Shown here: piece after piece, positions 3,638-35,700 of the stretch
Layout: every line of letters starts with the position of its first letter
Position numbering within the stretch: position 1 is the stretch's first letter
From: Styela clava
Lineage: Eukaryota
Reading direction: 5' to 3'
Assembly: GCF_964204865.1 (NCBI RefSeq)
Contig: NC_135263.1
Coordinates: 13,268,001 to 13,332,000, forward strand
Length of the DNA stretch: 64,000 nt
Notes under the pieces: model-generated
The model's input: the letters and a program-made list of their open reading frames with translations, nothing else
Told to the model about the DNA's origin: nothing
Database searches by the model: none
Position numbers and translations under genes: made by a program

Positions 3638-5118
3638 TAGACTAAGCGAGAAATGACATCCCAACATTGTATAGTTAACATACAGACATAAACAATCTGT
3701 GTGGGATAACACATAAAGTATACCGTCTCTATTAGCTAAGATTTTATTTAATGCCTGAATGTAGACATGTTAGAACTTACATTACAATTTAATTTACAGT
3801 AGCCTACCGTACGGTACCAGCAGTAACGGTACTGTAACCTCCATATCATGGGACGTGGACAACTCGACAAATAGCCTACAAACATCTTCAAATGCTACAC
3901 ACAAATGCACAGGCCAATATCCAGATATCGCCGATAGATTTTAATGCGGCGACCCACCCACCGATGTCTCAAAGAATGATAAGTCTCCGGAGTCTGAATA
4001 GGTATATAAATATCGTCTCACTGTTGCCCCCTAACGACCAAAGAAATAAAAGATAATAACATCGTCTATTTTCTGTAACCGCAGTAAAATTGTACCTTAT
4101 ACTTCATCATTGTGAATTTTGTTTTCGCGTGTTGTCGTTTGCAACCTGGTTTAGTTGTCAAAAATTATCATTTGCTTTAAAAGTGGTCAAGCATAAAAAG
4201 TACTGAAGCAGTTGAACAAATTTTAATAGTTAAGTCACAGTGCTTGTCACGTACACTGCTGGGGAACCACCGCCGCTTTGCCGCTTACCGGTCCCAAATA
4301 TTTTGTTTGATGTTCAGTTCTCTGTCGTCTGAATGGTTTAGTTCGGTTATAAGTTTCTGTCAACTCGAAAGAAATAGGAACAGCTTTTAAATCGATTTAA
4401 AATAAACTGGACGATCTTGGAAAAATAGAAAGTAGAGCGTAGGCCTACTTACTGCTATATTAATGTATTATGATATCCCGCTTGAATCGTAATACCGTAC
4501 GGTACCGGTACCGGTACCACTAAATTCACAATCGCCTGGTTAACATTATAAAGTTATACCGGTAGCCTATGTCACGGGCTACCGGTACCTGTGTCTTTAG
4601 TTTGCTGCTAACTTAGCTTGTCAAATTCTATGTATGTGTTTCTTGGTAACTTTATTTCTTGATCTGTTGATGGAGATAATAGTCTACTGTTATAACCGCA
4701 TTAACAATATTACAAACTAATTGTTCATCGTGCATTCTAGCTCGGGTAAAAGCACATTAATGTGACAAACTACGCCCATCACTCTTTACCAGTGTAGGTC
4801 GGGTATGAATGGCAATAGCTAGTAAACTCTCCAGAATTGATTTTATGCGAGGAACTCTATGAATTATCATCACAGCGAATATATATTTACCTTTGTTTCA
4901 CAACAACAGCTACATAAACATATAACGATGCAATCTCTTATCAGAGATTGTTTCATTGTGAGTGTGGATTTGTGACCTCACACTCGCTATAGCGATTTAA
5001 CCAGTTGTATGTATCATCGAGCTTGTGGTTGCTAGGATATCCATGGTATATGAAAAAAATTTGGTCTTTTCTAATTTAGTGTTCAACTAGTAGCCTATTA
5101 AACAAAAATTCTAGTAAA

Positions 5119-6483
5119 ATGCTCAACGGAGTATTTCTAATTAATTCACTTGGTGATGTATTGGCATGTAAAAACTTATCTGCCGCGAAATATACATGGA
5201 GTCCAAAAATATTTTTTCAACGAGGATTGCAGAAATTTATCAATAAAGTTTTACCACCATGTATAGAAATTGACAACGTATTCTATACCCATGCTTCCAG
5301 CGATGAAATTTTTGTTGTAGCTGTATCTGATTCTGAGGAGATATCTCCTATATTGATGATGATAAGTTTACAGAATTTCATCAAAGAATGTGCTGATTTA
5401 ATTGGAGATATGAAAAGTGAGAATGTACTTTTACACAGTGCTGTTGTATATGAGTTACTTATACAAACATTTGGCTTGTCCCATCCTGACAATATATCAC
5501 AACATGCCATTAATGAGTGCAAGCAAATGGGAAATACTGGATACACAGAGGCTGGTATGTTCCCTTTTATGCCAGAAAACTTATTTGGAGTATCACCTTC
5601 AAAAGAAGAGAAATATATGAAAGAAAGTAGTGCTTCAAAAGCACCTCTAGCATCTCAACAAGAAAAGAAAAATGAAATATTTGTCGATCTGATTGAATAT
5701 CTTATTGCGATAATTGATAAAGATGGTCAAGTTATTCATGCTGATATAAAGGGATCATTGAGCACTAAGAGTTACCTCACAAACACTGTCAGTGTTCAAA
5801 TCGCTTTGCCAGATAAAATCATTGAGGAGAATCCTACAGACACAAGTGATACTGACAAAATATTTATCACAGCGAAGCGTTTCAGATGCAAAAAATCATC
5901 GAAAGAAACACAAAATGAATTTCCACTTGTAAAACACTTGTCAGGCCCTGGTCTTAATCCGATAATGGATTACAATGTTGCATCAGACAACCTTAAACTT
6001 CCATTTACAATGTATCACAACTTTTCAAAGACCAATAAAGGCAGTATGATTGAGTTAGCATTAACCTGCAAAATTTTTTGTGCTCTACCACTTGGAATTT
6101 CTCCGATAAACTGGTCTGCATCATTTCCACTGCCATCAAAACTTATCTCTGTAAGCGGGACATCTTCTCTGAAAAGTATCCATTTTACACAAAGTAAAGA
6201 TAAAAGGACATTGCATATGCAAAGTCCTGTGTTCCCTGCCCAGTCACATCACTCCATCACGTTAATTTTACTATTATCTGAGATTTTGCCATTTATGGTT
6301 TATGAAATGCCTCATTTAAATATTAAATTTGAGGTACCAAATCTTTGTATCTCAAATATGAGGATACAAAGTCTCAAAGTTCAAAATATTAACTCAAACA
6401 CTTCCTCCACTGTTACCAAGTGGGCCAGATGTGTTACACATAGCAATGACTACACATTTGAATTAAAGTATGATTGGATTTAA
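5119..6483 (+). CDS. AP4M1: AP-4 complex subunit mu (adaptor medium chain), intronless CDS, 454 aa
   Basis: Longin-like N-terminus (VFLINSLGDVL), mu-homology start KKNEIFVDLIEYL, FEVPNLCISNMRIQSL, C-terminal KWARCVTHSNDY as in mu4. Acceptor-like ctaatttag ending at 5079 suggests a 5'UTR intron. Confidence 0.85.
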   Translation: MLNGVFLINSLGDVLACKNLSAAKYTWSPKIFFQRGLQKFINKVLPPCIEIDNVFYTHASSDEIFVVAVSDSEEISPILMMISLQNFIKECADLIGDMKSENVLLHSAVVYELLIQTFGLSHPDNISQHAINECKQMGNTGYTEAGMFPFMPENLFGVSPSKEEKYMKESSASKAPLASQQEKKNEIFVDLIEYLIAIIDKDGQVIHADIKGSLSTKSYLTNTVSVQIALPDKIIEENPTDTSDTDKIFITAKRFRCKKSSKETQNEFPLVKHLSGPGLNPIMDYNVASDNLKLPFTMYHNFSKTNKGSMIELALTCKIFCALPLGISPINWSASFPLPSKLISVSGTSSLKSIHFTQSKDKRTLHMQSPVFPAQSHHSITLILLLSEILPFMVYEMPHLNIKFEVPNLCISNMRIQSLKVQNINSNTSSTVTKWARCVTHSNDYTFELKYDWI

Positions 6484-6736: not shown

Positions 6737-8747
6737 TTAGACCTTTTTCATACATGCTACGCCGAAATAGTTTGATGGGCACAGGCAGACACATTTTCTA
6801 CCTTGATCCAGTATGACAAATTTCCCACCATTCCTGCAAAATCCAAGACTGCACCGATTGGGATCATAACGATCAAAAAGCTCGGACAATGCTCGTTCTG
6901 TGTTTTTTCTGATATGGCCTGAAGGAACCAGATCAGAAATTGGGGCGAGTTTAAAATCTATAATGGCCGGATTGTGCTTTATGCTGTCAACCCATTGCTG
7001 GTATTTTCCGTGATCTGTGTCCTCCCCAAGGAGCGTCAACACCGCGGCCGCTTTAGAGCTTCCTCCTACAACACTTGATGTCGTTTTAGAAGCCGAGTGC
7101 AAGAAAGTTCGTTCACTAGAGCTCGAGGAACCACTGCCTGCACAATTTTTTGTTGACAAGGATGGTTTTATGCCATAAATTGTCACAGCTGCTTCAGTCG
7201 TTATGCAGCTTTTCTGTTCCTCATCTGTTAGTTTTGTGCGTGAAATCAGACTTTTGGCGTACTGAAATACAACTTTAAATACACCTCCCACAACGCCAGA
7301 GGAGTAATAATGTGTCCCGAAATCACGAATTAAGTCCATGTACTTCGCGTAGTCGTATTCGATAGGCAGTTCTCCAATACGCTGTCGGAATTGTGAAGAC
7401 AACTTCAAGCCCTTGCGATTTATATTGAATTGTCCTATGCGAACTCTACTAGTTAGAATAAAATACTTGTAGTCTGTTTCTATGCTGGATTCAATGATTT
7501 TCTTCCATACGGTCTCCTCCGATTTTGCTGCCTTTGCTCCGTATGTAACGATGTCGTCGTAGGCAAACGAGATTTCCGCAGAAATCTTATACTCGTAATC
7601 TTTGTTCTTTTTCTCATTCAGCTCCATCGTATTTCTGTATGAACTCACCCGCAATGTGGTGTGCACTTCTGCGGAAGAACGGTAGCTTTGGATATTATAT
7701 GGCTTCCTGAATCTTTTTTGAAATTCGCCCAAATACACGGTGTCACACGTTCCACCATACTTGTTATTATCAAGTACGTGGCCCATGCTTTCAGCTTTTA
7801 AAATGTCATACCCGGCTCCGATATTCCCTATATTTGGGATTGATTTGTAGACGACCCCGCCACAAGGATTTCTGGCTGTCGTACAATTACGTTCGTCTGA
7901 TGTATCTTCGCAATCGGCATCTCCGTTGCATTTCAACCAAGATGCGATACAATGACTGTCGCTGTCACATCTCAAGGGCTGTGATTTCGAACACTGCTGG
8001 GTTAGCATGCTGCAATTTCCAGTTATTGTGCAGTTGTAGTCGATCCCCGCGTCACTCCCCTCGCATCTTTGGCCACCATATAGTGAAGGGAAAGCTACTT
8101 TTCGGTACCTTGAACGTAACCCTCCTCCACATTTATCACACGAACTCCATTCACCCCAAGTCCCCCAGCGGCATATCACGGGACAGGGTTTCACAAAACA
8201 GAGGTTTGTTTGTCTGTAAATAGGAAATATCGGGAATTATATTCCATAATATCCGTATCCATAGACATTGCCTATTTCAAAATGAATTAATTCTGCCTTT
8301 CGATCATCGACCATTTTTGTTCGAAAATTCTGAGTCCAAGTTATGTATACTATACTGATTGATTACTGCTTTTGTATAAGATAATTATATATATATATAT
8401 TAATTGAATAATAATATAAATTGTTCTGACTCTAATGATGGACATCTTTGGCCATTGTGTTGATGCATCACCGTTATATTTCTCGTACGGTATGTCAGCC
8501 CTTGTCCGCAAAGTTTACTGCAAGTGGACCAAGGTCCTCACGCCGTCACCTGTGAACAAGAATATCAAAATTGCTATGAGACTAATTCTGCTGTGAAGGC
8601 TTTTCGATTTTGATAATTCTACAAACTAGATATACATTTTGAAGTCATAACTACCTGACAATCTTCATCGTGCTTTCCCCACCATAGATGACCATCAGTC
8701 ACCGCAAAACAAGCCAACATATACACATAACAAAGAAGAATCCTCAT
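6737..8747 (-). CDS. Complement C6-like terminal component (signal peptide-TSP1-TSP1-LDLa-MACPF-EGF), 562 codons with in-frame TGA at codon 35 (nonsense allele, pseudogene or recoded)
   Basis: Exons 8655-8747 (MRILLCYVYMLACFAVTDG...DCQ), 8431-8549 (VTA*GPWSTCSKLCGQG..RTR..CPSL), 6737-8213 (WGTWGEWSSC; CNGDADCEDTSDERNC; MACPF YMDLIRDFGTHYYSSGVVGG; EGF CRNGG...CLCPSNYFGVAC). Phases match. Confidence 0.85.
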
Positions 8748-10538: not shown

Positions 10539-13500
10539 TCACTGCAATTCTTCAAACGGAAGACTGGCCGGCATTTTTAACAATGATACGCACTCCATTC
10601 TAAAAAAAAAATATTGTACAAATTGAGAAATTTATAGAAGCAAGATATATAATTGTGTGAGTGTGTGAATTGTTACGAATATACACGCTTAACTTGTACA
10701 AAGCTGTAACAATTGGCAGTATCTTGGAACACAAAAAAGTGTCAAACTATTTCACTCACTCAAGTTTGGCGGGCAATATAAAATCGTTGCGCGGACCGTA
10801 ACTGACTCGCAGTTTGGGAACCAGTTGTAGCGCAACAAATATGCTTTGGCAACAGGCCACCAGAGTCATGGTCCCCTATATCAATAAGGTCTTGTATATG
10901 ATTAAAAATTGTAACAGGAAGAACTTTCAGGGATGGATAAAGAATTTTTAGGACACCACCCGATCATACATTTCAAGTAGAATTACTCACTTTGCTTCCT
11001 TGTATTTGTCTCTTGCAGCCTGTTGTGGGTTGCCAGGTGCAGCATTGAATAAATTATATAACTTAGATATGCATGGTGCAAGTTCGTCTAAGTTGTACTG
11101 CATGTAGTGTTGCATTGTTTCATCCTGGAAGGCAAAATGTAGGTTATAAACTTTATTTGCAGTGCAGTCCACAAAGAAATACGAGCATCTACTTACCCAT
11201 ATTTTACCAGAAACTGCATAGCTCGCCAGACACACCGCTGAAGCAGCTACAAAAGATGGCAGAAAAGCAACCATTTCACAGTCATTGAGTGCAAGTTCAC
11301 ATAGGTACTGAAAGGAAATAGAATTGATAATGATTGAAGAAACTAAGAAACCATCAGATTCATTCATTTTAAAAGTGCGGGGAATCAATGACTAGAATAA
11401 ATCGACAGCAGCTGTGGAGTAAACATGGCAGTTGCTATACGAATTTTTATAACATAGTTGATACCGCATTATCATATGTATACTTGTTTCATTTATATTA
11501 TTACAAATATGAACAATATTGAGAAAATGTTCAGTTTTCCTTTTCTACAGCCATTCATTACTCAAGGCTTATCAATATCAAAAGTCTAATATTAATAATG
11601 TAATATTTGTGAATAGGTTAGAAAGTTGATAACATATGAGAGTAAGAATTAGTTGTTTGTACTGATTACAAATTACACATGTTTGATTTAATGATAGAGT
11701 CTTACCGAAGCAAGCATTTCCGTTTTTCTGTCAGCACAGGCAGCTTTTAAAAACCTAGGTAAAAATTGATTTGAGGTTGGGACGGCAACATCGAAGCTGA
11801 GCACTTTAAGAATGAGATGCTCCATTCTCAGAACTTGTTTCTTTGTGTAAGTATCATCAGTAATGTAGACAAATTCACCGACATCTGGTGGGTAAATCTC
11901 TTCAAATTTTCTGAAATATGTAATAAATAATAATTTAACCTAATATATATAAAGAAACAATTATAGAGGATTAATGATCACATTTTTATTGAAATTAAAA
12001 AGTATTTATTTAATGACCGACTCAATAACTCTTCAAAACCACTCTTAGCACAGTTCCACAACAAATATCCTTATAGGTTCCATTACATTTGAACCCACGT
12101 ACATTTGAACCCATGACAATTGCACCTGTATGCTATTGCACCTATGGAATTTTTTTTGTTTTTCGGATAGTTGAACCCATACTAACCCTAACCCATGGGT
12201 TTTAGCACCCGCATATAGATTGAACCCGTGGATATACGCATGGGTTCAAATGTACGTGGGTTCAAATGTACGGTCACCATCCTTATATACTCACGCGGCG
12301 AGAAACATTGCTGCGGTCCCGACAAGCTGAAGCTTCGCTCTCATAACAGCCATATGGGAAAGAAATCTGTCGATGTAATTGACTGCAAGATGTGTAGTTT
12401 CTGTGTGTAATTTATATTCTTCTGAAACCTCAATGAGCCAATCTACTAATATGGATCTCATGCTTGCTGTGATGTCTTGCTGTTTTCTCATATAATTTGC
12501 TTTCGGGCGATTTCTTGTCTGTATAAATTTTTTTTTAATTTGAAATCTTATTAAATTAATTAATATTAAATAAATTCGAAATAACCCGATCAATTCGTGG
12601 CACATCGAAGCAAACTAATTTAATGTGAAGCAAGATCATGAATAATTTTAGTACAGATTCTACTTTTAATGAAGCTATTAGTTTATTGATAATTTTGAAT
12701 AAAAAAATTAAGTGAAAAGTTTAAGAGTGAAAACAATTCCAATACCATGCTTTGTGTTCCTTAGTTCACAAGTAAAAATGTCCTGTATAATTGTCAAGTC
12801 TGGATTTGCCATAGGTTGTAGGCAACTTACCTCAGCTTGTCTTAGGTGTTCAAAAATTTCAGTTGCATATTCGGAGACTCCATAAACACTGGATTCTGCA
12901 TCAATATCGGATATACTAGATCTGTCTGAAGAATTTAGTGTTGTATCCAAGACCATAGGAGATTCTATAAAAATGAATTGTTGAGGTAATTGTTACAAGT
13001 ACAGTTCACAAGCCATTTCTAAGATACCTAACGAAAATACTCTCATTATGACATTTATGATACATAACAAACATATCAGAAATATTGGAGTTCCCTAATT
13101 GAAGCCCAATTGAAGTTTTTTTACAATTCCTTACCATGTTGTTCTGGAACTGGTAAACTTGTTAAAGGTGCCCTTGATATTGAAGGTAAAGCTGTTAACG
13201 CAGCAGGCAAACTGGATTTATCTAATGTTGACTGTCTGGTGACTGGCTTCGTGCTTTCAGCAACACTAACTGCACAAGCAGTTTCATCAAATATCTGTAT
13301 GAAATCAGGCGATGATTACAGTCCGTTCGGTTGCTAGACCATGTAGTTATGAAGCATAACAAGAGGGAACTTAATTTTTTTTTTTCAGGAAGAAAACTTA
13401 ATAAAATACTAGCAGTAGAAAAAATGTAATGTAAAATTATATTATAAATTTCATTCCATGTTACAAAAAAATTTTAAGTTCACAATTCAAAGAAATGAAC

Positions 13501-15946: not shown

Positions 15947-17490
15947 GTTGTAACCCCACATTTTCGACTCGGACACATCGATATCCGATGGTTTTGAATG
16001 AACGGAGCCCCCCACCCACTTGACAATAAATTATTTGTCGAATTTGTGTTTGTCGGGTGCTAGGAAATGCGAGATTCACGTCGGTGTTGCGATTTCACCT
16101 AAAATATGAAACAGAAAAGGGTAAAATTATGATTATATCTTATCCAAAACCGCAACGGTCCATGATCCAACCGATATTTAAATCAAATGATGTTAAATCA
16201 TTCAAAATCACCAACTTCACGCATTGTGAATATAGCTCTATGAAAACATAATGAAACTGAGGGAAATGAAAAATTTGCAGGTGTGCATTTTTCAATAATT
16301 AATACCTGACAATCATAAGTACTCCTCACCTTATCACGAGTATTTATGTCGGATATCCACATATTACGTTACGGGATAGGGGATTTAAATCGGTGGAATC
16401 TTTTTGCAACCACGCGACCACGAATGTATGAATAAAACAAAGGCTTTGTTATTGTTAACGAATATACTCGTTTCTAATTCGAATTTCGTATCCTCGGGCT
16501 TTGTTTCATTCCATAACAACAGTGTGGGGTCGTTAATTTCGACAATACAATGGAATCATGCCGACGGTTCTGTGGCGGGAAATTCAATTTATCTCAGTCG
16601 TAATGCGCAAAAGCATCCTTAAATGTGCCCGGAAATACCTTCCAGTTAATTAATCACGATAAATGCGATTAATACGAGTCGTTGCATATTCTTAAATAAC
16701 GAAGGTCTCGGTTTATATTTCAATAAGTTTGGTACAATATTGTATAATATTCATTTTTTTCGATACGAAATATGATTTCAAAATTCATTACTACCGGTAG
16801 CTGTGTATTTCGCTGACTTCGAAAGAATTCAGATAAACATGGCAGATTTTGATTTTTAAATAAACAAAAATGTTATTGTTTGACAAGGAATATGTCTGTA
16901 GTATATCCTTTCATTACAATATTTAGAATTTAATCCTCTTTACATTGGTCCAGTTCAATGCTTTCATGGATGCAGGATGTGGTTTGTGTGAAACCGCATT
17001 ACAGAAACAATAATTATAAATTTCTCATCCTTAGGAAACAGCAAACTTGGAGTCAAGTCGTTTTTAAGTTTTTTTCCTATCGGTGTGAAAGTTGTTTTTT
17101 TCTACTAAAATGGTTGGCATTGCTCATGGAGAACAAGGAGTTCCAATTACTGAAGAACTTGAAACCATCGCAAATGTTACCATTAAATTATCTTTATCAA
17201 ATATTGGAAACATTCCCCCCAGCTCTCGGCATATTTTTGTCCGCATTCTAGGATAGAGATGTTAGATGGCTCATAGGGAATAAAATAACCTTCAAAAAAT
17301 TCAAAGACCAAATCGTAAGGATGGAATATCTAGAGGGGGGTGTCATATAGGCTGCCCCGGGCAGCACGTTTTAGGGGGTGGGGTTCGTTGCTCTGTTTGA
17401 TGATTTAAATTTTAAATGAAAATAATACAAACATTTCATTCTTATCCTAAGTGATTCAAGAGTCTTGCTGCACACTAACACAAATATATT

Positions 17491-17534
17491 TCTGTAACGT
17501 TTCGTCTGACCAAGGTCAGACTTCTTCAGACATA
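17491..17534 (-). ncRNA. Minimal type I hammerhead ribozyme (inverted copy)
   Basis: Exact reverse complement of the 17597-17640 motif, in the left arm of the inverted repeat. Confidence 0.8.
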
Positions 17535-17596
17535 CATATTTAAACATGTTGAAAAAATATGCATGTGACTGCTTTTCGTGTTGTAGTTGAATTATG

Positions 17597-17640
17597 TATG
17601 TCTGAAGAAGTCTGACCTTGGTCAGACGAAACGTTACAGA
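17597..17640 (+). ncRNA. Minimal type I hammerhead ribozyme
   Basis: UGU-CUGAAGA(17602-17608)-A-stem II GUCUGACC/UU/GGUCAGAC-GAAA-C-GUU|ACA: intact core, palindromic ACGU stem III, stem I UGU/ACA, predicted cleavage after 17635. Confidence 0.8.
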
Positions 17641-18899
17641 AATATATTTGTGTTAGTATGCAGCAAGACTCTTGAATCACTTAGGATTGTTATCTCTACT
17701 CTTGCTACAGCATCCTTGCAATATATGCATACGGATCCACCGGCACAAAAGCATAGAATAAGGATAAGTAGTTAGTCTCGCAGAAACCAAATAATCAGCG
17801 CAAGATTTCATTCTTACTTGACCTTCAATTCTTTTCCTCATGTATAAGGACATCTATAATTTGTTTAGCCCCAAATTATATTCGAAGTTAGGTATAAGAA
17901 GCGTCCTTATAAAAAAATCGCTCCGGGCACTCGGGCAGCAGAAAAATATGACACGCCCTGTACATATCCCTCCATCAGGCCCTCCTTGCTACGTCTATGC
18001 TTCGTATACGGCTCAAATATATAGTGTAAATTCATTCAGTCGATTTTATGCACTCGATGAGATGTTCGACAAAGTCATTTGTATTTGATTCCTTTGTTAA
18101 TCATATGTAGTGTGTATTGCGCGATCTTGGTTGTTTAACTATCAATTAGATGGTTCAACTACCGAAGTCCGCCCATGAATAAAAACAGTGCTTCAAAAAT
18201 CAAGTTGCTGAAACTTGCTAATGTTTATTTAGATACTTGAACCTTGGGTGTCGCTGCTTGATAACCAGCTTTGGCTCCCCGCGGCGTCCCTCCCCAGTCA
18301 AATGTGTTTTCAATATTATTCGTCTGAATATTGCATGTTAACTTTTTTTTTACTGGATAGAAAGAATAAACTTGACTATGACTTTTTTTTTTAATTTTTC
18401 AGTTGCCTTAAAAGTTTTCAGCAGTTAAAACAGCTTCAAATATACGATTACATGTTTCGGTGTGATTCGAACACTTTTATTAGATCCGTTAAAATCGGAC
18501 AGAAATATTATTGTGGCTTGCTCTCTGTGAAACAGGCGTTTGGGCTCAACCATTTCACTGCTAGGAACCCTTGTGGATCCGGGATCCGTGTTGTGAATCA
18601 GGGAATTTAGCGTGTTTAAACTGGAGTATGAGTTGTATTTTCAATCTCCCCGTAGTCAGAATTCCGAATTCCCTTCAATTAGCGGCCGGAGCCGGAATTT
18701 CAGACTTTGAGATTACTAAGCATTGTCAACAATCCGTTATATGTATTTCCTAACAAAGTGTCGGTGTCAAAATTTTTCACCTCGGATTGGGGAGTCGATT
18801 GCAAATTTTTTCCAAATCCCCTAATTGCGGACTCCTTTTAATAAAACCAATGACTAAAGTAATGTATAGTCTACGAGTGATATCTAGTGAATACAATGC

Positions 18900-23678: not shown

Positions 23679-23809
23679 TAGCTTCCAGTATTTCATGTAT
23701 TGGATTTAGCTTTCTATAAGATTATAATACTGTAATATGTGAAATTTACAGATTTATTTCACCAGATCAAAGTTATATAACCTAATACTGTAATAGTTGA
23801 GCAACTGGC

Positions 23810-24715
23810 ATGGATTATGTTCCACCAACTATTGGAGACACAATTGAATTATTATGGTTTATTATGATATTCCTCCTTGTTCTACTTCTCGTCGCTCTTT
23901 GCACCTTTAATAAAGAAAATGGCGGAGTTCTGTGGCAGCTGATGACAATAGCTTCTCAATATGGCAAACTTAATTCTGGAAAAGCCATTAAGTTTTTCAA
24001 TTTACCAAAGAAGATATTCACACATTTTTATGCTATTTCTGTACTATGGAATTTGATATTCATCGCAGATTTGAGCATAATATTTTGGTTTTCTGATACG
24101 CAAAAAGGTTTGATCATTAAGTACATTGTTCCTGAATCGAGTACAACTCGAAATTTGATAACAAAGAAGTCGTTATTGCTTGCTTTTACACTTATACTTA
24201 TTCAAGGTTGTCGAAGATTATATGAATGTTTATATGTTAGCAAATTTTCCAAGCAAGCTACTATAAATTTATTCCATTACTTTCTTGGTGTTTTTTTCTA
24301 TATTTTTGAGCCTTTAACTATTGTTTCAAAAATTGGTGCAATTGAAAAATTACCTTCTGGTGATATCGAACTGAGACATTTTGTTGGAATAATTCTCTTT
24401 GTTGTGGCCTCATATTATCAAAATCAAAGTTTTCATATATTTGCTAAGTTGAGAAAAATTTCTGATAAATCTGAATATAAAATCCCCACTGGTGATCTCT
24501 TTGAATTTGTGTCCTGTCCTCATTATTTTACTGAAATATTGATCTACACTGCTCTGACATTCATAGTAGGATTTTCGCACTATTCTTGGAGATATGCTAT
24601 TGTTTTTGTCATTGTGATACATATTGGAATGGCTAAAATGTCCCATGAATGGTATTTATCAACATTCAAACAATATCCAAAGCATAGAAGAGCACTGATT
24701 CCTTTTGTATACTGA
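23810..24715 (+). CDS. SRD5A3: Polyprenol (polyprenal) reductase / steroid 5-alpha-reductase 3, intronless CDS, 301 aa
   Basis: QYGKL, LPKKIFTHFY, QGCRRLYECLYVS, HYFLGVFFY, IPTGDLFEFVSCPHYFTEILIY, SHEWYLSTFKQYPKHRRALIPFVY are characteristic of SRD5A3/DFG10. Confidence 0.93.
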   Translation: MDYVPPTIGDTIELLWFIMIFLLVLLLVALCTFNKENGGVLWQLMTIASQYGKLNSGKAIKFFNLPKKIFTHFYAISVLWNLIFIADLSIIFWFSDTQKGLIIKYIVPESSTTRNLITKKSLLLAFTLILIQGCRRLYECLYVSKFSKQATINLFHYFLGVFFYIFEPLTIVSKIGAIEKLPSGDIELRHFVGIILFVVASYYQNQSFHIFAKLRKISDKSEYKIPTGDLFEFVSCPHYFTEILIYTALTFIVGFSHYSWRYAIVFVIVIHIGMAKMSHEWYLSTFKQYPKHRRALIPFVY

Positions 24716-32711: not shown

Positions 32712-35700
32712 TCAAACAGTTGTCTGGTCCGCTTTAATCTTCAGTGGCACGTCTTTAAAAAATTTGGAATATAAAGATAGTTGAAATCAAGCATCGTGCA
32801 TAGATTATATGTTAGTATTTTTCCTTCAGATAAAAATTATGAACAAAGAAGTGGTCCATGGGTGGTCCAACAAAGCAGCTGAACTGCTGAAATTTATTTT
32901 GGCTAATTATTATTAATAGGATAAAATCGAGGTGAGAGAGGTGGAATTTTCATTTAAATAGGCGAATAATTTAATACATAGTGCTAAGATTACCTTCACT
33001 ATGCGGTGCGCTCCCGTTCCTCTGTTTTCTTGATTTTAATTCGTCGCTGGACATCTGGGATGTTCCTTTCCCACTCACTACTATTTTTGTTAACCGCGTG
33101 CCAGTGAACAAAGATCGAGTTCTTTCGTGAGATCTGATTTGTCTGTAGAATATTAATTATTTGTCGTTTACTAAATTGTTTTGACACCAGCGGGTTGTAA
33201 ATCTCAAGTCCAGGTTTAACAGCAGTGAAATCGTGTCAATTACATTATATATATATACAGTGTCTTTAAGAATCTTCTAGGAGTGAAAATATTTTATCTT
33301 CCCTCGATGATACATGTGCTCGCGGAAGTGAAACAACTAATGTGTATATATATATGTAACTTTTCGGTCGAAGACTCACAAACTGGGAAGACTTTTCTTT
33401 GACCGCAAAGTAACTTCGCTATTGAATATTTATTGAATATTTAGAAAATTGGGACCTCCTGAAGTATGCGCACCAAGATGTCGCACAACCTGAACATAGT
33501 ATGTGTACCAGGTTAAGGTTGTGCGACATGTTGGTGCGCATACTTCAGAAGCACCGAAAATTGTTTATACTTACTTCAGTCTTTTTCTAAAAGATCCAAG
33601 AAAATTGTACATAAAAGGATTTAGAGCAGAATTAGCGTATGCTAGAGTGAGAAACACAACAAAAGCAGAGTTGCAGAAATTCTAAAAAAAAAAGAATTTA
33701 ATGACATGATAATAATTACTAATCAGTAATAATCTATTACCCAAATATTTAAACTTGTTGACTAGTTGTTATCTAAAGGGAATAGGGATATCCGTATAGA
33801 TCAGAGTTCCCCAACCTTTTATGGCTCGTGGCCGCCTTTCGGAGGCTTTCGGCACTCACGACCCCCTGTTTATTATTCCAGTGGTATTTTGATTGGAAGA
33901 CTCCGAATCCCATTATGTTCAAACAATTGATCAGCAGAGTAAAAACATCCTATGGAAATAACTTTATCAAGCAATGAAACTAGGAAAAACGGGGCGTTTT
34001 TTTATAAAGTGAAAAGTAAAATCAGTTTTGCGCCTAGCATTGTGAACCCCTCCCAACTGCTCTTGGGGGGGGGGGGGGGGGGGGGGGGGGCAGGGGTTCC
34101 CGTTTGGGAACCGATGGTTTAAATTAAGGTATTAAAGATGAACATAGCCATGTTATCAGCAAAAGTTCTTTTGCTTGTAACGATGAACCGATTGGTTAGG
34201 TAATATTCTAGAGATATTGTAGGCTAGTTTATTTTAGTTGTTCAAGCTTATGATTTGCAATGTGTTTAAGCATTAATTAATAGACTATTCCCACAATCTA
34301 CACGGACTGGGCACCGACTAATGGCAGTGTTTGCTATAAGATTAGGCCGCGTTCAAGCCTACCTATCAATGGTGATAAATATGATAAATCTATCCTTTCC
34401 AGTAAATGTAAAACAGAACAGTTTTAGAGCTTACCATTCGTGATTCACACATATATTATTTTGGAATGAGTCTCAAATACTATTTATAACACGATAATAA
34501 ATGAAGGCAATTTGAAAAGAACATTAAGAAAATATTTGTACCGGATATGGAGTCGAGAATCCGTCAATCATTGCCAACATCATCGAATGGTACGGTAGCC
34601 AGCATACAACAAATACCACCACCAAAATAGCGCAGAGCATAGTGATTCTCTTTTTATCTTTCTGTGATCGACCCGTTGATGAGATAGAAGAGGATTTCCT
34701 GGATTTGAAAATTCCCCTTTTCGCTTTAGAGTTATGTTCTTCAGTATGTGAATCACTTGTCATCATTTTGCTTCTCAGTTGAAAAACGATTAAACCGTAA
34801 CAAATCGTAATAACCTGAAAATAGATATTTTAACAGTAATATTTTATTACAATAGTATTAGTAGCATTAAGAATCAAAAACTATTTCTATTGAAGTCCCC
34901 TTTGGCCCTGCTCCTGTCAATGTCACTTAGCTCCGCGTTAAGGGTGAAATAAGTTGTGCATTTTGCTCTAATTATTGTAGGCTATACCCAATTAGAGGAT
35001 TTATTGTAAATAGGGTATTGTTTTATAGCTATTTATTATTTTCCAGTAGAAAGTTCCTAAATACAGTAAATAAAAGCCTATACTTACAACAAGCGGAACA
35101 ACAAAAAACGCTATAAAGTTGGCCAGAACAAAAGGTGTCATTCCAGGCTGGAGTGAAGTATGCTTGCAGTGAAATTCTGTTTGCTCTTCGTTTCTATAAT
35201 TAAAAATGACTTTTTTTAAAATTGACAGCATTTTCAATAGGATTTCATTCCAGCGCAAACTTAACCACTTCGTTAAGCGCGTCGCTAAAGAATCTAACCA
35301 TGTTTTAAAGACACGGAATGCGCTTGTGTTGGTAATAGCCTACAACAGTATTTATCACTACTGTTCTTCAAAAGCTTAGTTACTTCAAGTTCATGGATCG
35401 TGGGGTGGTATACTTTATCAGTATAGCAATACAAAATATGCTTTTAATGGGGATTGTCTGCTACATTTTTGAACTATTATTTTCATATTATTTTTTCAGT
35501 TGGGTAATTCGAACAAAGTATCTTTAACTAGACAAATTACTCACTCAGTTTCGCCTATCTCTTCTCCGGAGAACCCAGAATAGTCACCATATTCAGGATA
35601 ATCATATTCCGAGGAGTTCCCCATATCAATCGGCTGTGTTATCGTTGGTGTTGATATTTCAGCAGACTTACATGTTGGCGGTTTGTATCTTAAGATGAAC

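Follow-up and report, generated by a model that had tools for sequence, protein, structure and literature searches.

Two complete hammerhead ribozyme cores lie head to head within a short insert in the Styela clava genome (NC_135263.1, positions 13,268,001 to 13,332,000; this 64,000-nt stretch is the window), raising the question of whether the pair is a mobile unit in its own right, an RNA kept for a function, or the remnant of something larger. A sequence-only reading of the window had described a 360-bp insert between 12-bp direct repeats, with a 95-bp near-perfect inverted repeat and the core pattern CUGAAGA-A-stem II-GAAAC-GUU in each arm. This architecture was confirmed: the insert occupies 17445-17804, its target-site duplication is exact over 12 bp on each side, and its inverted arms (17444-17545 and 17586-17687) span 102 nt with 3 mismatches, only 1 of which falls within the outer 95 nt. 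Stem II, previously given as 8 bp, forms 7 pairs closed by a 4-nt loop, which an eighth pair would shrink to 2 nt. With the predicted cut (17635) set to 0 in element numbering, pLTR standing for pseudo-LTR, and S1 and S2 denoting two classes of arm 3' end, the parts are as follows.

17433..17444, no strand: left target-site duplication, 12 bp, exact repeat
17445..17545, minus: short inverted pLTR arm, about -42 to +52, outer end at S1 (blastn against a full-length copy)
17496..17529, minus: minimal type I hammerhead core, cut predicted between 17496 and 17495 (pattern and fold)
17546..17554, no strand: filler at the arm-arm junction, unique in the genome; alignments of other copies begin at query position 10
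17555..17804, plus: direct arm, pLTR -80 to +169, outer end at S2
17583..17585, plus: 5'-end hot spot of the family (-52 to -50), a likely pLTR transcription start
17599-17601 with 17636-17638, plus: stem I, contiguous part 3 bp
17602..17635, plus: minimal type I hammerhead core, cut predicted after 17635 (GUU; pattern and fold)
17610-17616 with 17621-17627, plus: stem II, 7 bp, 4-nt loop
17631-17634, plus: palindromic stem III
17688..17804, plus: 'tail' from S1 to S2, about 115 nt, on one arm only (two-class 3'-end histogram)
17805..17816, no strand: right target-site duplication, 12 bp, exact repeat

The two ends of the insert thus belong to different classes, S1 (+52) and S2 (+169); 117 nt lie outside the inverted repeat, which does not extend to both ends, and seven inner bases of the short arm are altered relative to the element (blastn against a full-length copy). 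As the sequence-only reading had it, no ATG-led coding frame exists within the 360 bp. A 13-nt inverted pair (17336-17348 and 17946-17958, about 600 bp apart) brackets the insert and may mark the termini of an older small element that was used as target. No empty-site allele was found among the matches listed (15 of 100 joints); contigs that cross the right junction were also listed.

A genome search with the direct arm yielded 3030 candidates, 40 of which were scored, at 92-100% identity, and reverse-transcriptase and endonuclease frames were found in the flanks of such matches. One locus, L031, is a complete pLTR-ORF-pLTR element with a 12-bp duplication and a 940-codon open frame; a second, L032, carries another intact 940-codon frame that is identical to the first at 910/927 positions (98%). 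The proposed search for a Penelope RT/GIY-YIG element sharing the pLTR was therefore successful. Pfam recognized RVT_1 in the ORF (E=8e-10) and GIY-YIG (E=1.4e-4) at 22.5 bits, 0.1 bit below the curated cut-off of 22.6. The ORF contains DKG, motif A, QGxAMG and FIDD, and a C-x4-C-x2-C Zn-finger linker at residue ~793, between the RT and GIY-YIG domains; we take its endonuclease pattern to be 'Neptune-like'. The best database match of the ORF protein, at 99% identity, is labelled as coming from Styela clava, and none of the named proteins among the 120 matches listed carries a clade label. The family has the single ORF, with RT and C-terminal GIY-YIG, that defines EN+ Penelope-like elements (PLEs), and it displays direct and/or inverted pLTRs, partial tandems and 5' truncation. 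The direct arm of the insert matches the 5' pLTRs of L031 and L032 at 243/250 and 244/250 positions and ends ~33 nt upstream of the element ATG (+202); the hammerhead, S1 and S2 are all upstream of this codon. With 97-98% identity to full-length copies, the insert is young. We regard a Penelope origin as virtually certain: the insert derives from the pLTR of a retrotransposon of this type, with RT, Zn-finger linker and GIY-YIG. The sequence-only reading had noted that a match to a catalogued Penelope pLTR would remove its claim of novelty, and in substance a match to a Penelope pLTR is what we found.

Separately, ~2.2 kb of other sequence (L032:2459-4654) splits the 3' UTR of the second element, between the intact ORF and the 3' pLTR. 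The genome also holds at least three further Penelope-like families with long open frames, at ~76%, 62% and 47% protein identity (L240, L241, L246, L247, L253 and L254; L242-L252). The 76% and 62% families have open frames of 960-977 codons and both direct and inverted pLTRs; in the 47% family, UUGAAGA mostly replaces CUGAAGA, with CUC as the cut triplet. Inverted hammerhead pairs are present in other Penelope families too.

Are the motifs hammerheads? A loose core pattern had 1214 genome matches compared with 94 for a reversed control, and a single arm folded with z=-3.4, arguing against chance. The CUGANGA and GAAA boxes, the bulged base, the G10.1-C11.1 pair and an NUH triplet are all present. 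Pattern, fold and identity to full-length element pLTRs agree with the minimal type I, Penelope-pLTR assignment made earlier. The same hammerhead occurs in both L031 pLTRs and in pLTRs of three other families, and C3 is U in 2/7 aligned rows. A search with hammerhead models, suggested as a check, did not bear this out: an Rfam scan of the window gave no hammerhead family up to E=5 and only weak miRNA-like hairpin matches; minimal motifs fall outside those models. Across 7 pLTR hammerheads from 4 Penelope families, 95.6% of modelled pairing cells were kept (slid controls, 24-40%) and 4/13 pairs had changed on both sides, with a shuffle count for such pairs of 32/500. The double changes fall in helices I and II and in the palindrome of helix III, which is kept as a palindrome (ACGU to AGCU). 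Core conservation and stem covariation among copies, the absence of which would have counted against the ribozyme, were thus both found. Compensatory changes across four Penelope families support the predicted hammerhead fold; as the independent events are few and the sequences related, they back the fold rather than activity. A further hammerhead type, at L126, L143, L149 and other pattern matches, has CUGAUGA, a 4-bp G/C-rich stem I and a GUC triplet, and also occurs as opposite-strand pairs. The three numbered loci were excluded from the covariation count because no PLE coding sequence lies within 1.5 kb of them.

The excerpts of PMC4209133 that deal with metazoan PLE type I hammerheads describe the same helix II of 7-8 bp, bulged base before G10.1, G10.1-C11.1 pair, palindromic 15.2-16.2 and absent loop 3, and the same prevalence of dispersed truncated copies. 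Helix I differs, with 3 contiguous bp here compared with a typical 4-5 (2 in D. virilis), as does the cut triplet, here GUU. According to the same excerpts, monomers of minimal hammerheads show no cleavage and dimers little (PMC4209133). In the genome, 319 exact copies continue across the predicted cut site, and the 5' ends of 56 matches listed, some of which are point variants of intact copies, show no peak there (0/+1, n=7; -1/-2, n=7; +2/+3, n=11), indicating that integrated templates were mostly uncut. A hint of cleavage in vivo, from 4 copies, was dropped.

If the inverted pair was a mobile unit, its inner junction should recur. We examined 172 loci, comprising the best-scoring direct-arm matches, the first 100 listed of 153 genome matches to the exact 34-base core, and 62 picked among the first 100 listed of 444 matches to a downstream 25-mer. 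Ten were dropped as shared-flank duplications (5 by pairwise blastn and 5 by shared upstream sequence), and an arm could be scored at 155 loci. Of these independent loci, 73 had an inverted partner, which is not a genome-wide rate because the choice of loci followed best score or exact pattern on first-listed contigs and favours two-armed loci. Short two-hammerhead inserts of 300-390 bp, similar to that in the window, occupied 14/155 loci; these, together with the compactness of the window insert and its target duplication, speak for a MITE-like or retrozyme-like non-autonomous element that is copied whole, as does the recurrence of a few junctions (L074/L162/L194; L089-L091). However, inner junctions vary between loci and nearly all are private; that of the window has a single genome match, itself. 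The copies with recurrent junctions share flanks over 1-3 kb, so they were copied with host DNA or inside another repeat. The inverted repeats do not extend to both ends of the insert, and its 12-bp duplication is the one typical of the PLE: a target duplication of at least 7 bp was detected at 69/157 loci (a set that included 3 later-dropped duplicates) compared with 37/471 mismatched-flank controls, 45/69 detected duplications measured 11-13 bp with a family mode of 12 bp, and the duplications were 80% AT.

Nor does the insert form the tandem array of a retrozyme. Non-LTR retrozymes, in the excerpts of their descriptions used here (bioRxiv 10.64898/2026.07.22.740005; PMC7229834), are likewise short, non-coding and related to PLE pLTRs, with a type I hammerhead, but they form head-to-tail tandem arrays, whereas the window insert stands alone, with its arms head to head and a junction of its own; retrozyme identity was rejected on this ground. 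Copying of the unit as a whole is thus largely refuted, and we give it almost no credence. The window locus is one of hundreds of truncated copies, with a private junction and sequence drawn from the pLTR of an autonomous element, and not a member of the dispersed non-autonomous family that had been proposed.

Several loci show hammerhead sequence in other settings. A solo pLTR piece (-42 to +165) has one upstream flank at six loci (L043, L053, L061, L102, L103 and L110, on contigs C17, C1, C2, C9, C9 and C10 of G000); the alignment of L043 with L053 runs for 870 bp at 96%, and this hammerhead stub thus travels inside another repeat. At L074, L162 and L194 (C4, C1 and C3), one inverted insert with an identical junction has flanks of 1.2-1.6 kb at 95% identity and is carried within a larger repeat or duplication. 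Five hammerhead units ~580 bp apart, 3 on one strand and 2 on the other, lie at G000:C1:6694424-6696822, possibly a short tandem array of retrozyme type.

How, then, did the inversion form? With so long a tail, the two start sites can be distinguished in every arm, which turns a question still described as open for Penelope-like elements into a count. Arm 3' ends fell into two classes, S1 at ~+40 to +60 and S2 at ~+145 to +180, with windows set after the histogram was seen and blastn ends that overrun by chance by up to ~10 nt; the 242 ends comprised 128 S1, 102 S2 and 12 others. Inverted pairs nearly always combined one of each: 63 of the 73 were S1+S2, 4 were S1+S1, none was S2+S2 and 6 had an unclassified end (63/67 classed pairs, binomial p=1e-14). 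Relative to the S2 arm, the S1 arm was nested in 21 of the 63 pairs, equal in 13 and extended further 5' in 19, and in 10 the arms did not overlap. At polymorphic sites the two arms of one insert agreed in 55/60 comparisons against 32 expected at random, indicating that both came from one source; several comparisons can come from one insert, and later arm-to-arm conversion could inflate this agreement. Neither the tail (z=0.23) nor the two end sites (z=0.57 and -0.24) showed a stable fold.

We propose that the window insert is a dead, 5'-truncated and 5'-inverted pLTR copy that likely arose by twin priming, a reading we hold with high confidence, weighted towards identity more than route; as the main route of inversion, twin priming is probable. 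The endonuclease would cut both strands of an AT-rich target ~12 bp apart, and each 3' end would then prime reverse transcription at one internal RNA site, S1 near +50 and S2 near +165. Both short cDNAs would stop early and be joined head to head with few filler bases between them; we infer both the two primers and the order of these events. This route is favoured by the fixed end sites ~115 nt apart, by the 29/63 pairs in which the S1 arm is not nested (19 and 10) and which are therefore incompatible with fold-back of one S2-primed cDNA, and by a pile-up of 5' ends described below. Because arms overlap in 53/63 pairs, unlike in classical twin priming on one RNA, it must assume displacement or two RNAs of one source.

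The main rival keeps the Penelope origin and attributes the inversion to self-priming, in which cDNA or antisense RNA snaps back at a palindrome or microhomology. Such self-priming was proposed in PMC3846280, which interprets junctions in palindromes this way, and it may explain the fold-back copies at the +1..+18 palindrome: L188, L189, L196 and L206 have perfect or near-perfect fold-back junctions there, and two further pairs have junctions in element palindromes. The 34/63 nested or equal pairs fit fold-back equally well, and the alleles shared between arms are also as expected. A single fold-back, however, leaves the stop at the other fixed site in 63/67 classed pairs unexplained, the non-nested pairs speak against it, and the window junction consists of filler with no shared palindrome. 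We consider self-priming unlikely as the origin of the inversion, while giving it appreciable weight.

The 5' ends of the arms are consistent with twin priming on a transcript that starts within the pLTR. Ends at -54..-49 accounted for 40/217, compared with 2 and 3 in the neighbouring 6-nt bins upstream and 10 and 15 in those downstream. At -53, where the element has T, G was present in 10/36 anchored hot-spot arms versus 25/288 arms that extend further upstream (p=0.002). An extra 5' G derived from caps occurs in other retroelements, and the pile-up is likely a capped pLTR transcription start with a cap-templated G, as judged from these genomic copies. The direct arm of the window reaches -80, beyond this likely start, which means that a longer, read-through RNA served as its template. 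An acceptor-like site ending at -49 suggested that the -52 hot spot might mark a trans-spliced leader or an exon; this was rejected, as the upstream bases are not common among copies.

We give roughly even chances to the proposition that both nicked target strands prime the same source RNA at two sites ~115 nt apart and that this is unreported. If true, the cDNAs pass the uncut hammerhead, often run off the capped 5' end of a pLTR-initiated transcript, which leaves an additional G, and undergo head-to-head joining; a single mechanism, other than self-priming, would then explain the inverted pLTR, the tail on one side and the many tiny hammerhead inserts. The intact ORF and wide site spacing would make this mechanism directly testable.

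Could the two-ribozyme hairpin instead have been retained for a function, either as a source of dsRNA or small RNAs that silence the family or as an RNA switch? A transcript reading through the insert is predicted to form a hairpin of ~100 bp (-194 kcal/mol), and its computed stem II probability is ~3e-18, versus 0.99 in non-inverted RNA; as the sequence-only reading had anticipated, the hairpin is predicted to trap both cores. RNA-mediated silencing of Penelope families has been reported in a rotifer (PMC3846280), and such silencing would be a plausible by-product at the level of the whole family. Against retention of this particular hairpin, the insert is young and one of many random products, and no host gene was found to span it: none of the 10 frames scanned between 13 and 23.5 kb (28/96 long frames were scanned in the window) had a Pfam match. 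We judge a retained function very unlikely; the two hammerheads are passengers, and the inverted pair has no demonstrated function.

The inverted layout, which had been regarded as unusual, is typical of Penelope in the excerpts consulted. These describe, as the typical structure, direct pLTRs adjoined by an inverted one, with one arm bearing a tail, together with a duplication of 8-10 bp (PMC3846280), a typical layout with an inverted copy and hammerheads sited in pLTRs (PMC8557442), and dual minimal hammerheads on opposite strands 100-700 bp apart, as in this family (PMC4209133). Our element shares with the EN+ PLEs of the Neptune and Nematis clades, as presented in excerpts of PMC8557442, one ORF with RT followed by GIY-YIG, direct pLTRs, 5' truncation, partial tandems, an adjacent inverted 5'-truncated copy, a tail at one end and a pLTR hammerhead. 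A CX2-5CxxC Zn-finger linker marks these two clades (PMC8557442), and the C-x4-C-x2-C motif places our element within that definition, at the level of the predicted protein. It differs in its tail of ~115 nt rather than the published 30-40, in the clear duplications of 11-13 bp that it leaves in ordinary AT-rich DNA, and in the position of the hammerhead and both end sites ahead of the ATG (PMC8557442).

Excerpts on the Poseidon element PAc of Anolis (PMC11167929) offer a parallel to the proposed mechanism: a Poseidon PLE assayed in vitro cleaved both target strands and extended both, starting reverse transcription at two internal sites on either side of the tail. PAc also shares two fixed 3' end sites, AT-rich targets and a hammerhead that leaves integrated templates uncut; its sites lie within the ORF (PMC11167929), whereas those of our element are in the 5' UTR, and our tail has no stable predicted stem-loop. 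A word search of the PMC11167929 text available found 'inverted' in a methods sense only. Within the main texts of the open-access literature, we found no twin-priming account of Penelope inversions and no description of this family in Styela clava or ascidians. Published work already covers inverted pLTRs, one-sided tails and hammerhead pairs that lie 100-700 bp apart on opposite strands; less ordinary here are the two fixed end sites ~115 nt apart, the non-nested pairs and the 5' ends piled at a likely start. Inverted hammerhead pairs in animal genomes should be read first as Penelope insertion scars. The locus itself matters little and the family somewhat more, since a young family with intact ORFs provides material for a bench test.

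The window holds two older relatives of the insert. At 61.7 kb, the inverted head-to-head layout that had been reported was upheld, but a core, itself decayed, was found in one arm only; the further fragment noted at 62.6 kb was also recovered.

61662..61914, no strand: older relative, 10-bp duplication at 61662 and 61905
61674-61826, minus: S2-type arm of the older relative
61844-61903, plus: short arm of the older relative, decayed core
62570..62709, minus: fragment of an older pLTR copy with an incomplete core, covering element -7 to +137 at 77% identity

Outside the 13-23.5 kb interval around the insert, the window contains the following candidate host genes, recognized by Pfam.

5080-6483, plus: adaptor complex medium subunit, long uninterrupted frame
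6737-8236, minus: TSP1, LDLa and MAC/perforin, long uninterrupted frame, presumably a complement C6-like layout
10987-12614, minus: cyclin N and C domains
23801-24715, plus: steroid 5-alpha reductase family, long uninterrupted frame

Long hairpins at 33458-33549 and 50957-51066 gave weak Rfam miRNA-family matches, far below gathering scores.
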